DNA of 42,451 nt from a virus (lineage: Duplodnaviria; Caudoviricetes). The notes beneath the pieces are model-generated. The model ran no database searches and was not told the DNA's origin. It saw only the letters and a list, made by a program, of their open reading frames with translations. The stretch lies in the IMG/VR virus record IMGVR_UViG_3300005259_000079, positions 1-42,451 of that record. One strand, written 5' to 3'. Below, in pieces: positions 20,368 to 25,012 of the stretch (within the stretch, counting starts at the first letter, position 1; each line of letters starts with the position of its first letter). A program made the translations under genes and the position numbers.

Positions 20368-23091
20368 ATGGCAGAAGAAACAAAAAATCCGTTAGCCCCT
20401 ACCGACGAAATCGCTACCCTCGAAAAGGATATCGAAATATTTTCAGGGTGGATCAAGCGCCTGGAAAATCCCGACCCCGTCCTGCGCAGCGAAGCGGCTG
20501 GAAAAGGCATTAAACTATACGACGAAGTGGACCGCGACGCCCATGCGGGCAGCGTGCTACAGCAGAGAATCATGGCCGTAGTTGGCAAGGAATGGCAAAT
20601 TCTTCCGGCCAAATCCGCGCGAAAGGCTGGCCGTCCCGCTTCCACCACACAGGAACAAACTATCGCCGAATTCGTTTCGAACGTTTTGTCGACGTGCAAT
20701 TTTGACCAGGCGCGGCAGGAACTGCTCAAGGCCATCCTCTATGGACATTATGAAGCGGAAATTATTTGGCAGGCAGAAAAAGACAGCAATGTCCAGAATT
20801 CAAGCCTGCGAATCAAGAAAATCATCGGCAAACATCCGCGCCGTTTCATCTTCACCGCCGAAAGAGAATTGCGCCTGCTGACCCGCAATAACATGATCGA
20901 AGGCGAATCCATTCCGGACAGGAAGTTTTTATCCTTCGGATATGGCGATTCCGACAACCCCTATGGTTGCGGCCTGGGAAGGCGTTTGTGGTGGCCGGTC
21001 TGGTTTAAAAAGCACGGCATCAAATTCTGGATGATCTTCCTGGAAAAATTCGGCATGCCCACCGTCGTCGGTAAATACCCCAGCGGCACCCTGCCCAAAA
21101 AGCAGGAAGAATTGATGGCCGCTATCAATGCCATCCAGACCGATACCGGCGTTAAAATACCCGAAACAATGGATATCGACCTGCTGGAAGCCACCAGGGC
21201 GGGCACTGTCACGCATGAGCAGCTCTGTGAGTATATGGACCGGCAGATATCCAAAGCCGTCTTGGGCCAAACCGCATCCACAGACGGCACACCCGGTAAA
21301 CTCGGCAATGACCAAAACCAGAGCGATGTTCGGCAGGAAATTGTCGAAGCCGACGCCGATCTGCTCGATAGCTACACAAACGAAACCCTGATCCGGTGGA
21401 TTGTCGACTTTAACTTTCCCAACGTAACCGCCTATCCTACAATTAAGACTTTCGCCAACGCCAAGCCGGATCTGACCGCCCGCGTAAGCGTAGACAAGAC
21501 TTTGGTGGTCGACATCGGCCTCCCGGTCGGCAAGTCATATTTTTACGAAACCTATGGCATCCCCGAACCTGCCCCCGGAGAAGACCTGGTCGAAGTGCGG
21601 CAATTATCCGCCTGGCCCAGCGATTCCTCCGGCGTCATTCCCGCAAAGGCGGGAATCCAGCAAGGTAAGGAATTCGCCGAAGGCGACTCCACTGACGTAG
21701 CCGACTATCTTGCCGCCGAACTGGCCGCCGCCTCTATGCCCAATACGGACGCCATGATGGTTCGGCTCAAAAAACTGACTGGCAGCGCCAAGTCCCTGGA
21801 AGATCTGCGCGACGGCATTATCGATATTTTTTCAGACATGAACCCGGCGGATCTGGGCAATACCATCGCCCGCGCCATGATGCTGGCCGAAATGTCCGGC
21901 CGTTATGAAGTTGCCGACGAAACCGGCATCTTGCAGGAAAAAAAAAGCCCGAAATTCGCTGAGGGCATAGCGCCATCGTTGATGGCCGTCTTTAAACTTC
22001 CGTTTAAAGAGCAGGAAAAGTTCTTTCAAAACAAGCTGAATATTCCGACCGAAAAATGGACGGACCTCTGGAAAGACCTGCACGCCAAAGGCTTCATGGT
22101 CGCAGGCGCATACAAAGCGGAATTGCTGACCGATTTCAGAGGTGTGGTGGACAAAGCCATTACCCAGGGCACCACGCTTGCCGACTTCCGGAAAGACTTT
22201 GACCGCATCGTCTCCCAGCACGGCTGGAGCTACAACGGCAGCCGCAACTGGCGCAGTGAAGTCATCTATTCCACCAACATCCGCACCGCTTATGCGGCAG
22301 GTCGCTGGGAGCAACTTCAGGATCCGGATATCATCAAAGCTTATCCGTACCTGGAATACCGCCACGGCGACAGCAAAAAGCCCCGCCCGCAGCACTTGGC
22401 ATGGAACGGCCTGGTCCTTCTCCGCGATGACGACTTCTGGAAAACGCATTATCCGCCCAACGGCTGGGGATGCAAATGCAAGGTCATCGCCGCCACAAAG
22501 CGCGACCAGAAAAAAGCGGCGGAAAACGGGAAAACCGAAGCGCCACCGGAGAAGATCGACAAGAAAACCGGCGAACCGGCCGGCATCGACAAAGGCTGGG
22601 GATATAATGTGGGTGCAGCGGCAGAGGAAAACGGTTACCGGGTGCTGGTGGATAAATTCGAAACGCTGCCTAACGATATAGCCCGCAAATGGATGGCGTC
22701 TTATGTGAACGAACCGGCGTTCGAGCGTTTCATATCCGGAGAAATCAAGGGCGAATTCCCTGTGGCGGTCATGGATGAACAAACGCAAGAAGCCATCAGT
22801 GCTCAGGCGCAGACGATATGGCTAAGTGATGAAACGCTGACTGAGCACTTAAAAAGACACCCGGAAATCGGCCTGGATCAATACAGGCTGCTGCCGGAAA
22901 TCATTAACGACGGCGAAGTCTACAAGCAAGGCGATGTAAAACTGATTTATTTGTGGCGCGACGGGAAACTCTATCGCGCAGGCGTCAAAAGAACTCGGGA
23001 CAAAAGCGGAAACTACATTCTGACGCTGTTTGAAACAACAGACAAAACGGCGCTGAAAAACGTAAGGGGAAAATATGAAAGGATTCGTTGA
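20368..23091 (+). CDS. Fused portal (Mu gp29/DUF935) + MuF (gp30) head protein + C-terminal PBECR-type putative RNase
   Basis: Portal motifs NPYG.GL, FLEKFGMP..VGKY, ISKAVLGQT to about aa 520; MuF motifs LPF.EQ..FF..K, YSTN.RTAY.AGR, RPQH.AW.G, YPPNGWGC.C; C-terminal H..RHPEI....Y..LP.II..G...LTLF. Confidence 0.88.
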   Translation: MAEETKNPLAPTDEIATLEKDIEIFSGWIKRLENPDPVLRSEAAGKGIKLYDEVDRDAHAGSVLQQRIMAVVGKEWQILPAKSARKAGRPASTTQEQTIAEFVSNVLSTCNFDQARQELLKAILYGHYEAEIIWQAEKDSNVQNSSLRIKKIIGKHPRRFIFTAERELRLLTRNNMIEGESIPDRKFLSFGYGDSDNPYGCGLGRRLWWPVWFKKHGIKFWMIFLEKFGMPTVVGKYPSGTLPKKQEELMAAINAIQTDTGVKIPETMDIDLLEATRAGTVTHEQLCEYMDRQISKAVLGQTASTDGTPGKLGNDQNQSDVRQEIVEADADLLDSYTNETLIRWIVDFNFPNVTAYPTIKTFANAKPDLTARVSVDKTLVVDIGLPVGKSYFYETYGIPEPAPGEDLVEVRQLSAWPSDSSGVIPAKAGIQQGKEFAEGDSTDVADYLAAELAAASMPNTDAMMVRLKKLTGSAKSLEDLRDGIIDIFSDMNPADLGNTIARAMMLAEMSGRYEVADETGILQEKKSPKFAEGIAPSLMAVFKLPFKEQEKFFQNKLNIPTEKWTDLWKDLHAKGFMVAGAYKAELLTDFRGVVDKAITQGTTLADFRKDFDRIVSQHGWSYNGSRNWRSEVIYSTNIRTAYAAGRWEQLQDPDIIKAYPYLEYRHGDSKKPRPQHLAWNGLVLLRDDDFWKTHYPPNGWGCKCKVIAATKRDQKKAAENGKTEAPPEKIDKKTGEPAGIDKGWGYNVGAAAEENGYRVLVDKFETLPNDIARKWMASYVNEPAFERFISGEIKGEFPVAVMDEQTQEAISAQAQTIWLSDETLTEHLKRHPEIGLDQYRLLPEIINDGEVYKQGDVKLIYLWRDGKLYRAGVKRTRDKSGNYILTLFETTDKTALKNVRGKYERIR

Positions 23092-23190
23092 ACGTGTGCG
23101 GGATCGGCAACTATCCCCGCTTCGCACTCATCATCCGGAATCCCGGAAGGTGTCGGCAGCCTGTGGCCGAAACGCGTCAACAAATCCTTT
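23078..23190 (-). ncRNA. Candidate ~113-nt structured small RNA behind the MuF-nuclease gene
   Basis: Closing stem 23078-23097/23172-23190 enclosing three hairpins; starts about 7 nt downstream of a minus-strand -10 box. Confidence 0.6.
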
Positions 23191-23197
23191 GAACGTA

Positions 23198-23225
23198 ATT
23201 TTAACACAGGCGGCATCAGAGTCAA
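23198..23225 (-). promoter_or_regulatory. Leftward sigma70 promoter for the small RNA
   Basis: TTGACT (23225-23220), 16 bp, TAAAAT (23203-23198) with extended -10 TG. Confidence 0.7.
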
Positions 23226-23234
23226 GGGGCAATA

Positions 23235-23741
23235 TTGGAACTGAAATTTGAAATCAGAGACTCGGGCATCGATGGCGTCCTGGAGCGGATCGCCCGCAAG
23301 GGCGGCGACACATCGGTGGCTCTCAAAATCATCGGCGAACGCATCGTTCGCCAGACTGATGACCGCTGGACCCGCAATGTGGATCCGGACGGCCGCCCCT
23401 GGGTTTTGCCTAAAGCTTCCAGCTGGCGCAAGAAAAAAAGCCCTCTCACCCTGGTTGAAAGCGGTCACTTGCGCAATTCCATCCGCTGGCAGGTCGACGG
23501 CAATGTGCTGAGAGTCGGCACAAACCTGATTTATGCGCGTATTCAGCATGAAGGCGGCAAGACCAAAGCGCACGACATTCGGCCCATCGAGAAAAAAGCG
23601 CTGGCCTGGCCGGGCGGCAGGCACCCTGTGCGAGTTGTTCATCATCCCGGATCAAATATTCCGTCGCGTCGGTTTCTGGGCATTGGCCGGGCGGATTCGG
23701 CGGATATTGTCGAAGTGCTGACCGACTGGCTGGAATGCTAA
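23235..23741 (+). CDS. Virion morphogenesis protein, Mu gpG (gp31)-like
   Basis: DPDG.PW..., L..SG.L.NSI, VGTNL.YA.IQH.GG, IP.RRFLGI; TTG start. Confidence 0.88.
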   Translation: MELKFEIRDSGIDGVLERIARKGGDTSVALKIIGERIVRQTDDRWTRNVDPDGRPWVLPKASSWRKKKSPLTLVESGHLRNSIRWQVDGNVLRVGTNLIYARIQHEGGKTKAHDIRPIEKKALAWPGGRHPVRVVHHPGSNIPSRRFLGIGRADSADIVEVLTDWLEC

Positions 23742-23748
23742 ATTCGAT

Positions 23749-23800
23749 GTAGCGCGGGTCTTCAGACCCGCCTGAAAGCGCGGCTAAAGACCCGCACTAG
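23749..23800. repeat. GTAG-family REP-like element, same family as host 2769-2840
   Basis: GTAGCGCGGGTCTTCAGACCCGCC versus host GTAGTACGGGTCT...TAGACCCGCC. Confidence 0.65.
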
Positions 23801-23812
23801 GAGGTAACATAA

Positions 23813-25012
23813 ATGAATTTCAAAGGTTTTGATGACTGGATTCCTATTTTCCGTGGCGGCAAGCAGATTGACTCTGCAGGCCATGATCACGATGGCGATG
23901 CCCTGATTGAAAAGGCGCTGGCCAAGTTCAACACGGCAACACACGAACCCCCCGCCTGTGTCGGCCATCCGGAAGACAATAAGCCGGCCTATGGGTGGGT
24001 TGAAGGGCTCAAAAAAGGCAAAGATAAGCTGGGAACAATCCTGCTGGCCAAATTCAAGCAGGTTGAACCCACTTTCGGCCAAATGGTCAAGGAAGGCCGG
24101 TTTAAAAAGCGCAGTTCCGCTTTTTATCCCGATGGAACCCTCCGGCATGTCGCTTTTCTGGGGGCCATGCCTCCGGCGGTTAAGGGTCTGCCTGACGTTG
24201 CTTTTGCCGAAGGCGAAGCGGCCAGTTTCGAGTTTTCCGAAGAATATGCATTGAATTCAATAGCAGATTTATTCCGTAACATGCGGGAATGGCTGATAGA
24301 AAAATTCGGCCAGGATGTCGCGAATAAAATCATCCCGGATTGGCAAATTGAAGGTTTGAGGTCGGCTGCAGATGATGAGGCCGACGAATCCCAAAACACA
24401 TCATCAACAGCAATTTATTCCGATAAGGAGGATAACCCTATGACGTTTAAACAGAAATTAGAGGCTTTTTTCAGCGAATTACTGAAGAAAATGCCGGACG
24501 ACGGCCCCGGATCCACCACAACCACCACCCAGGGCAAGCAGTTTTCCGAAGCCGACCTGGAGAGGGTCAAAAGAGAGGCGGCAGACGCCGAACGCGAAAA
24601 AGTGACCGCAGAATTCAACGAGAAGGCGAAAAAAACTCGCGAGGACGGCCTCAGGGGAGAGATTTCCGCATTTTGCGACTCATTAGTCGCTCAGGGACGC
24701 ATTTTGCCCGCCACGGTCAAATTTGGGCTTCCGGAAATCCTTTTTGCCCTGGGGCAGCGGGAAGAAACAATCGAATTTGGAGAAACAAAAGAAAAAGCAA
24801 CCGTTTACGACCGTTTTAAGGCGCTCCTGTCCGCAGCCAAGCCCCTGGTAGCCTTCAGCGAGATCGCTACCAGGGACAAAGATGCCGGCGATACCGGGCA
24901 TGATCAGCGCGAGCAGGCTATCCAGAAATACATGGAGACAAACAAGGCCGACTACAAAACAGCCGTCCTGGCTGTCTCTAAAGATCAGCCGGCATTATTT
25001 TCCGAACGATAA
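23813..25012 (+). CDS. Prohead protease with nested scaffold (internal start 24440), Mu gpI/Z-like organisation
   Basis: WI.IFR.G, VGHP....PAYGWV..L, FKKRS, LRHVAFLGA.PPAVKGL; AAGGAGG SD before in-frame ATG 24440. Confidence 0.88.
   Translation: MNFKGFDDWIPIFRGGKQIDSAGHDHDGDALIEKALAKFNTATHEPPACVGHPEDNKPAYGWVEGLKKGKDKLGTILLAKFKQVEPTFGQMVKEGRFKKRSSAFYPDGTLRHVAFLGAMPPAVKGLPDVAFAEGEAASFEFSEEYALNSIADLFRNMREWLIEKFGQDVANKIIPDWQIEGLRSAADDEADESQNTSSTAIYSDKEDNPMTFKQKLEAFFSELLKKMPDDGPGSTTTTTQGKQFSEADLERVKREAADAEREKVTAEFNEKAKKTREDGLRGEISAFCDSLVAQGRILPATVKFGLPEILFALGQREETIEFGETKEKATVYDRFKALLSAAKPLVAFSEIATRDKDAGDTGHDQREQAIQKYMETNKADYKTAVLAVSKDQPALFSER

Follow-up and report, generated by a model that had tools for sequence, protein, structure and literature searches.

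The MuF-nuclease gene and the RNA element behind it

The window analysed here is the whole 42,451-nucleotide (nt) stretch of IMG/VR virus record IMGVR_UViG_3300005259_000079, a Mu-like phage in which transposase, terminase and portal genes are present. A portal (Mu gp29)-MuF-nuclease fusion gene of 907 amino acids (aa) occupies 20368..23091 on the plus strand (Pfam Portal_Mu, E 3e-99; Phage_Mu_F, E 4e-15; PBECR1, E 0.01, below the cut-off), and a gpG-like virion morphogenesis gene, also on the plus strand (23235..23741; Pfam Phage_tail_S, E 8e-24), forms the right flank of the cassette. Between them on the minus strand lies the subject of this report, a predicted class A non-coding RNA of about 113 nt with a four-way junction (23078..23191), for which an earlier sequence-only reading of this DNA had proposed the role of decoy or antitoxin in place of protein immunity.

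The C-terminal domain of the fusion protein (22810..23088, plus strand) is a candidate BECR-fold domain by alignments, an AlphaFold2 (AF2) model and fold matches, and a predicted RNase; His831, Lys874 and Thr886 are conserved in it, and its C-terminal tail is basic. The AF2 model of the last 153 aa has a predicted local distance difference test score (pLDDT) of 89 and consists of a helix and then a meander sheet, in the order of the BECR fold (helix plus 4-5 strands). Its closest structural neighbours are mostly BECR RNases, including BrnT (Z 6.1, root-mean-square deviation 2.9, 75 aligned), CdiA-CT NC101 (Z 5.6) and colicin D (Z 5.1). All three residues are invariant in an alignment of 13 close relatives, and the conservation of His831 and Thr886 fits the His and Ser/Thr site given for PBECR domains (Iyer et al. 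2017, PMC5512222; sources cited by PMC number were covered in part, and statements about them refer to the parts covered). Two relatives, L128 and L082, lie above the PBECR3 cut-off in a profile search, and the protein family of the nuclease counts 941 representatives at 50% identity. From these sequence and model data we infer that the domain is an RNase. Two results weigh against this assignment: the domain of the window stays under the cut-off of Pfam PBECR1 (E 0.009-0.01), and every fold match has a Z below 8, which is middling and does not prove the fold. Foldseek with the AF2 model found nothing at E 0.001 or better, the top match being CdiA-CT at E 0.018.

The nuclease gene stops at 23091 and the gpG-like gene starts at 23235, which leaves the 143-nt gap noted in the sequence-only reading; as that reading also noted, the gap shows no open reading frame (ORF) of immunity size. 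It contains no conserved ORF either. The minus-strand promoter it had pointed out was recovered by a promoter scan as a sigma70-like motif (TTGACT-16-TAAAAT with a TG extension, 23225-23198), the sole one within 22500-23800, where 0.6 were expected; the ribosome-binding site of the gene that follows adjoins the -35 box of this promoter. A canonical terminator was not found directly after the outer stem (P1) in the window.

P1 is formed by a 5′ arm (23172..23190), which pairs with the 3′ end of its own gene, and a 3′ arm (23078..23097), which is antisense to the final codons and stop of the nuclease gene; both, like the arms that P1 encloses, lie on the minus strand. In a pairing test, the non-coding arm of P1 fitted the end of its own gene better than those of relatives in 23 of 25 loci, with relatedness uncorrected. 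P1 encloses a first arm (23153..23170), a middle arm (23125..23152) with a 4-nt AUGA bulge (23131-23128) and a third arm (23098..23120). The loops of the first and third arms pair with each other, GGC (23161-23159) with GCC (23108-23106). The outer stem and three arms thus lie where the sequence-only reading had placed them, except that its middle hairpin, 23134-23147, turned out to be the tip of the longer arm 23125-23152.

With hand-picked ends, the window sequence gave fold z-scores of -4.05 for the minus and -3.85 for the plus strand, and with wider ends only -2.1 and -2.5; because significance needs chosen ends, the single-sequence fold alone is modest. Fold z-scores over a fixed 150 nt did not separate known positives from negatives and were not used. 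The claim of a structured RNA is carried by comparative covariation. Loci were gathered by protein alone, with the addition of eight annotated phages, giving 190 loci including the window, 148 of them distinct. Class A was aligned with MAFFT over 43 copies without structure fitting, and the covariation score of these 43 relatives was 0.387, versus 0.141 in shuffles (a control that ignores relatedness) and at most 0.175 in slid controls. Changes on both sides were seen at 22 of 26 pairs. The outer stem (48% paired) and first arm (68%) are poorly aligned; the alignment is clean in the middle arm, with the lower stem 100% and the upper stem 91% paired, and in the loop-loop helix, with 98% of cells paired, both with compensatory changes. 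The motif GAUGA occurs in 64/64 parsed class A copies, which were selected by that motif; one further copy, found by the model, reads ACGA instead.

A second class, B (44 copies), has the topology of class A, with a 5-base-pair (bp) kissing helix that is 97.7% paired and a covariation score of 0.417 against 0.155 when shuffled. Several features place these RNAs on the minus strand. GNRA, UNCG or CUUG loops close class A arms in 17/49 cases when read on the minus strand and 0/49 on the plus strand, and class B arms in 13/44 and 5/44, respectively. In well-aligned class A pairs, G-U outnumbers A-C by 19 to 1. Over all class B pairs the ratio is 113 to 50, and this bias is gone in the well-aligned subset (24 versus 24), which counts against the strand reading for class B. 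Minus-strand promoters scoring at least 8/12 were found upstream of the RNA in 36/56 class A loci (shuffles 6.4) and 21/44 class B loci (shuffles 4.1); on the plus strand, class A had none and class B one. Contact of the -35 box with the gpG ribosome-binding site may add to the conservation of the promoter.

Nothing relevant was found in Rfam for 22500-24000 or for 20 related loci, and the class A, B and D loci submitted to ARAGORN were not called as tRNAs (class D is described below). The class A model R1 gave a single match in the window (23090-23178, 67 bits), the window RNA itself being among its seeds. By BLASTN, the window RNA and a class B RNA were unmatched in the phage collection, and the class B RNA was also unmatched in E. 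coli genomes; one partial plasmid match was obtained. The four-way-junction element belongs to a conserved RNA family without an Rfam match.

Two known motifs were considered and rejected. UGAUGAG resembles the hammerhead core CUGAUGA and was ruled out because its first base is variable and no GAAA follows a stem; a K-turn or box C/D was ruled out because the opposite strand lacks GA. An extended variant with an extra 3′ hairpin was seen by eye in L041, L070, L078, L110, L115, L117-L120, L188 and L189; the loop of this hairpin is complementary to an internal segment, and a second pseudoknot is possible there. In L049 (2001-2353), a small ORF separates the nuclease stop from the class B RNA, and L019 has a frameshift in the C-terminal region around 1656, with RNA and promoter intact.

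Loss and exchange of the RNA together with the nuclease

Seven of the 148 distinct loci were set aside (four truncated, one without the C-terminal domain, one with another toxin and one split by an insertion) and 141 were scored. A domain was taken as intact if it had Lys/Arg, Ser/Thr and either His or, in the helix, K-Q/N (the latter mostly with an Arg close to where the His would be). All 127 intact-looking loci carry the RNA: 113 as model matches, a count that is partly circular since 87 of these RNAs were training seeds of the two models, and 14 as structured elements scored by eye, six of which give weak matches at the expected position with filters off. Among the 14 loci with a degenerate active site, including Mu-type D108 and D3112, none had a model match, and in 12 of the 14, D108 and D3112 among them, the next gene starts within -28 to +8 nt. 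Some structure can be made out by eye in L081, an exception, and in L127 the gap is present with no match. After clustering at 50% identity, the numbers with and without a match were 40 and 4 for intact and 0 and 12 for degenerate domains (p 3e-9). The RNA-less state arises at least six times on a quick tree, which has long branches among the degenerate domains. The RNA is lost together with the catalytic residues. Co-occurrence with the nuclease under covariance models, which the sequence-only reading had named as a check, was thus borne out: the structure does not follow MuF genes with a degenerate nuclease site, nor, apart from one match in L200, the short and other-toxin MuF genes examined.

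That match is one of several points which weaken the association; it is a weak class B-like match (33 bits, L200:1501-1618) that overlaps the stop of a MuF gene without a nuclease tail. The intact-site rule was fixed after data inspection, and a strict His rule leaves 12 His-less loci with the element, of which 11 have the helix K-Q/N and keep K and S/T. Scoring by eye in 14 intact loci and the circularity of the model matches have to be added, and adjacency alone ties the RNA to the nuclease to some degree. An independent check was obtained from an unselected MuF sample of 250 genomes, where all three readable members of the nuclease clade had a strong class B match; of the 30 loci that this sample returned, 24 were entered as such, and the other six were covered by overlapping PBECR loci.

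The class of the RNA also follows the nuclease. In fully readable loci, the nearest neighbour by nuclease shared the RNA class in 43/43 cases, against 35/43 for the nearest neighbour by MuF core and 37/43 by gpG. Loci L034 and L148 are 88% identical in MuF, 75% in gpG and only 30% in the nuclease, and their RNA classes differ. Since RNA class tracks the nuclease and not the flanking genes, RNA and nuclease are swapped as a cassette.

Extra RNAs in tandem were found in L005, L084, L122, L137, L164 and L174. L005 has its own class A RNA and a class B copy resembling that of L024. In L137 (2596-4188), an insertion-like stretch interrupts the MuF-nuclease gene, behind which lie two class A RNAs in tandem; the second has ACGA for AUGA.

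RNA-first searches of about 300 genomes yielded 12 new class B matches, of which three adjoin a MuF-nuclease gene and one, weak, lies behind a short MuF gene; the other eight had no MuF within 1.5 kb. For seven class B orphans, neither MuF nor PBECR was found in about 6 kb on each side. Three of them lie in defence-type contexts, namely a restriction-modification/PIN/Fic island beside a relaxase, a Cas9 CRISPR array, and a nucleotidyltransferase/IrrE/Fic island. The orphan at the CRISPR array (L256:5994-6094, 88.8 bits) is situated about 90 nt behind the array, which has a 66-nt period, with cas9 upstream. A class A orphan of 57 bits was found on an unrelated, non-Mu phage that has a T4-like portal and lacks MuF (L249/L260); it retains only the final codons of the nuclease gene, which build its outer stem. 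Viral pattern matches in L217, L236 and L251 were discarded as chance because the model, run with filters off, did not recover them. In being exchanged with the nuclease as a cassette and in having orphan copies, the element resembles protein immunity genes.

Proposed function of the RNA and rival explanations

An element that is swapped and lost with an RNase-like tail, and that has its own promoter motif, likely makes an RNA antidote. On this comparative sequence evidence, we consider it probable that the RNA confers immunity, likely as a decoy of the substrate, against an RNase predicted to be delivered by the virion. The decoy or antitoxin role put forward in the sequence-only reading is thereby supported, on comparative grounds, by co-loss, cassette exchange and orphan copies. 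The sigma70-like promoter would drive the RNA in the lysogen and in early infection, without dependence on the late operon. Its kissing loops would compact the RNA into a tRNA-like shape, and a class-specific face, which in the window would be the arm with the AUGA bulge, would occupy the cognate nuclease. MuF would be packaged and then injected, as the literature proposes for MuF toxins, and poisoning would strike cells unable to make the RNA, for example non-lysogens in which the entering DNA is destroyed. Such poisoning of RNA-less cells would account for the acquisition of orphan copies by other phages and by host defence regions.

For substrate mimicry, the strongest evidence comes from PBECR3, a sister family and not the clade of the window. 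A PBECR3 profile search of 401 genomes gave six matches, five of them readable, and each of the five carries, in convergent orientation, an element with a -10 box and a stem of 5 bp around the loop CUCAUAC (class D). Eleven further class D loci were found by pattern; the stem is then 100% paired with compensatory changes, although the pattern constrains these 11. The class D loci are L262-L266, L309, L316, L318, L320, L323, L326, L334, L336, L347, L349 and L352, L349 being without a detected PBECR3 gene. The class D arm is identical to the anticodon arm of host tRNA-Met at 15-19 of 21 nt, with the final loop base always different; it has C at loop position 38 and is followed by a short T-arm-like hairpin. 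The host tRNA-Met has the three G-C pairs that are the hallmark of an initiator. Phage tRNA-Met genes with CUCAUAC, where the host has CUCAUAA, were present in 30 of 46 pattern loci (L310-L351) and are possibly nuclease-resistant variants, in line with the resistance to anticodon nucleases through loop changes that has been proposed (PMC10264068). If the mimicry is true, the predicted substrate of PBECR3 is the anticodon loop of tRNA-Met.

Other BECR tails were also inspected. Loci with PBECR2 and other BECR-like MuF tails (L267-L278, L282 and L289) mostly have, with a gap of about 85-180 nt, -10 boxes on the minus strand and closing stems, and neither model matches them; these elements are probably further RNA classes. 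A crude rule of promoter plus closing stem was satisfied by 5/5 PBECR3, 6/10 PBECR2 and 2/14 other MuF loci, and by only 1/3 known positives, so it is suggestive only.

The sequence-only reading had also allowed that the RNA silences the nuclease mRNA, and among the rival explanations a type I-like antisense or cis control survives best, although we regard it as unlikely. Convergent transcription, with the structure serving as a stable 5′ end, would here silence or destabilise leaky toxin mRNA in the lysogen. The convergent orientation, the conserved promoter, the fact that the RNA overlaps the stop codon at many loci, the one in the window among them, and the lack of a canonical terminator right behind P1 in the window all suit this explanation, and co-loss with the active site would be expected under it too. 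However, 18 of 56 class A RNAs end at least 10 nt past the nuclease stop, and where the RNA does overlap the gene, the overlapping bases are paired within its own P1; of the two roles left open by the sequence-only reading, these two observations favour decoy or antitoxin over antisense silencing. The complementarity to the mRNA, a feature of toxin-antitoxin (TA) systems of type I, is here about 14 nt, self-paired, and absent in those 18 relatives. Moreover, orphans beside unrelated genes have no target gene to silence, and an antisense RNA has no need for invariant bulges, kissing loops or a copy of an anticodon arm.

It is improbable, in our estimate, that the RNA serves MuF as a cofactor, guide or activator and is packaged alongside it into an active ribonucleoprotein, for example one in which the AUGA bulge pairs with Met-tRNA anticodon loops. 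AUGA is indeed complementary to U33-C34-A35-U36 of tRNA-Met, and strict co-loss and co-swap would suit any obligatory partnership. Orphan and non-cognate tandem copies (L005, L249, L253-L259) would however be of no use to such a particle, the promoter stands apart from the late operon, and the class D RNA imitates a substrate and does not complement one.

We give slightly less credit, and in absolute terms very little, to a stand-alone counter-defence decoy against tRNases of the host or rival phages that lies beside MuF by chance. Orphans are frequent, and phage tRNA-Met genes with C38 exist in the loci counted above, with loop changes proposed to act against anticodon nucleases (PMC10264068); but the RNA is lost in every degenerate lineage examined and its class matches the adjacent nuclease. 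A plus-strand structure for processing or termination of late mRNA, or a DNA element, is highly improbable, since the tetraloops (17 versus 0) and G-U pairs (19 versus 1) point to the minus strand, even if the plus strand folds nearly as well (z -3.85) and would show a UCAU bulge, and since Mu-type D108 and D3112 lack the element despite an equal gene order.

Some findings also speak against an immunity RNA acting as decoy. In class A, mimicry of a tRNA sequence is not clear: the AUGA bulge is complementary to the Met anticodon loop, and the interpretation as a decoy is carried over from the PBECR3 sister family. The eight new class B matches without a neighbouring MuF, one of them weak and probably chance, fit a nuclease-free role too, and four of the seven class B orphans lie outside any evident defence context. 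The immunity RNA can be set in a wider picture, to which we hold only tentatively and which we think somewhat more likely wrong than right as a whole. Temperate phages would inject polymorphic RNases, and a set of tRNA-shaped decoys would protect against them, one class for each nuclease clade and one of these derived from the anticodon arm of the initiator tRNA; rivals and defence islands would steal orphans, so that a cell could destroy the phage DNA and yet survive the toxin.

Comparison with known systems and further features of the locus

Polymorphic toxins have been described with protein immunity, and the toxin-binding RNA antitoxins of type III systems are repeat arrays ahead of the toxin gene. 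The locus in the window shares with the MuF polymorphic toxins (Jamet et al. 2017, PMC5576092) a MuF head protein whose variable C-terminal domain is toxin-like, encoded in the packaging module of a temperate phage, and a cassette exchanged between conserved flanks. It differs in that the downstream immunity slot holds a convergent structured RNA gene and no immunity ORF. Small ORFs do adjoin MuF genes with other toxins, for example in L130, L283, L296 and L303. In the parts covered, the same source leaves many proteobacterial MuF extensions (Ct_MAD) unexplained, and delivery of MuF toxins together with DNA is a hypothesis published there (PMC5576092).

For PBECR/MuF-C domains, Iyer et al. (PMC5512222) describe fusions of MuF or portal to a BECR domain with a His (or Arg) in the helix and a C-terminal Ser/Thr, an arrangement also predicted here. 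They deem the BECR copy of Mu gp30 inactive, and the Mu relative D108 is without the RNA in our data. Targets among mRNA or CRISPR RNA (crRNA) were proposed for PBECR, and the covered parts of the paper mention neither an RNA partner nor immunity.

The nearest working analogue is type III TA, represented by ToxIN, CptIN and TenpIN (PMC5086642). In both cases an RNase, here predicted, would be held by a pseudoknotted RNA, and the antitoxin type follows the toxin clade. Type III antitoxins are tandem short repeats, whereas the window has a single model match and the rare tandems elsewhere are whole diverged RNAs. The type III antitoxin lies upstream in one operon with a terminator between it and the toxin gene; the present RNA lies downstream on the opposite strand with its own promoter. 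Here the toxin would be a BECR domain on a virion protein, and non-cognate orphans occur. Loop-loop pairs covary in the present RNAs, which do not have the H-type fold of ToxI. Going by sequence comparison, the element is predicted to work like a type III antitoxin, and yet it is not one.

Colicin D and the tRNases of contact-dependent inhibition (CDI) resemble the nuclease in its predicted BECR fold, as judged by the fold matches, and in a His/Lys/Ser-Thr site; their immunity factor is a protein, whereas an RNA is predicted here. Phage tRNAs whose anticodon loops are altered (PMC10264068) are like class D in combining a Met anticodon arm with one loop change, whereas the MuF-linked RNAs are not ARAGORN tRNAs and are linked to a nuclease of the phage.

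These RNAs were not found described in the literature covered, which did not extend to subscription journals, several supplements and the large catalogues of candidate RNAs (e.g. PMC8040213) that may list motifs without a function. MuF and BECR are unmentioned in the main text of two 2026 genome-language-model preprints, their supplements being outside coverage. The RNA-nuclease module is real, widespread and apparently undescribed, and novelty rests on this genetic module, which is shown; its function is strongly suggested by comparison and its mechanism is inferred. If true, a cassette that gives immunity to a virion-borne toxin through an RNA would be a module of a new kind and would account for the many MuF nuclease genes without an immunity ORF. 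The long-open function of MuF/PBECR domains would become directly testable with a protein of about 150 aa and an RNA of about 110 nt, and a hidden, RNA-only class of candidate defence genes would be added to bacterial genomes.

Some further features of the window were noted. A G+C-rich hairpin after the gpG-like gene (23742-23790) has a weak match to Acido-Lenti-1 (E 1.5) and is probably an ordinary palindrome or terminator. Portal and MuF share one frame, and their junction crosses an A-run at about 21938-21947. The motif FAEG occurs twice in the portal-MuF fusion, once at the junction, and once in a gpI-like protein (23813-25012); these sites possibly mark protease cuts. P0015 is a second fusion of the portal-MuF type, with FSD at the junction.

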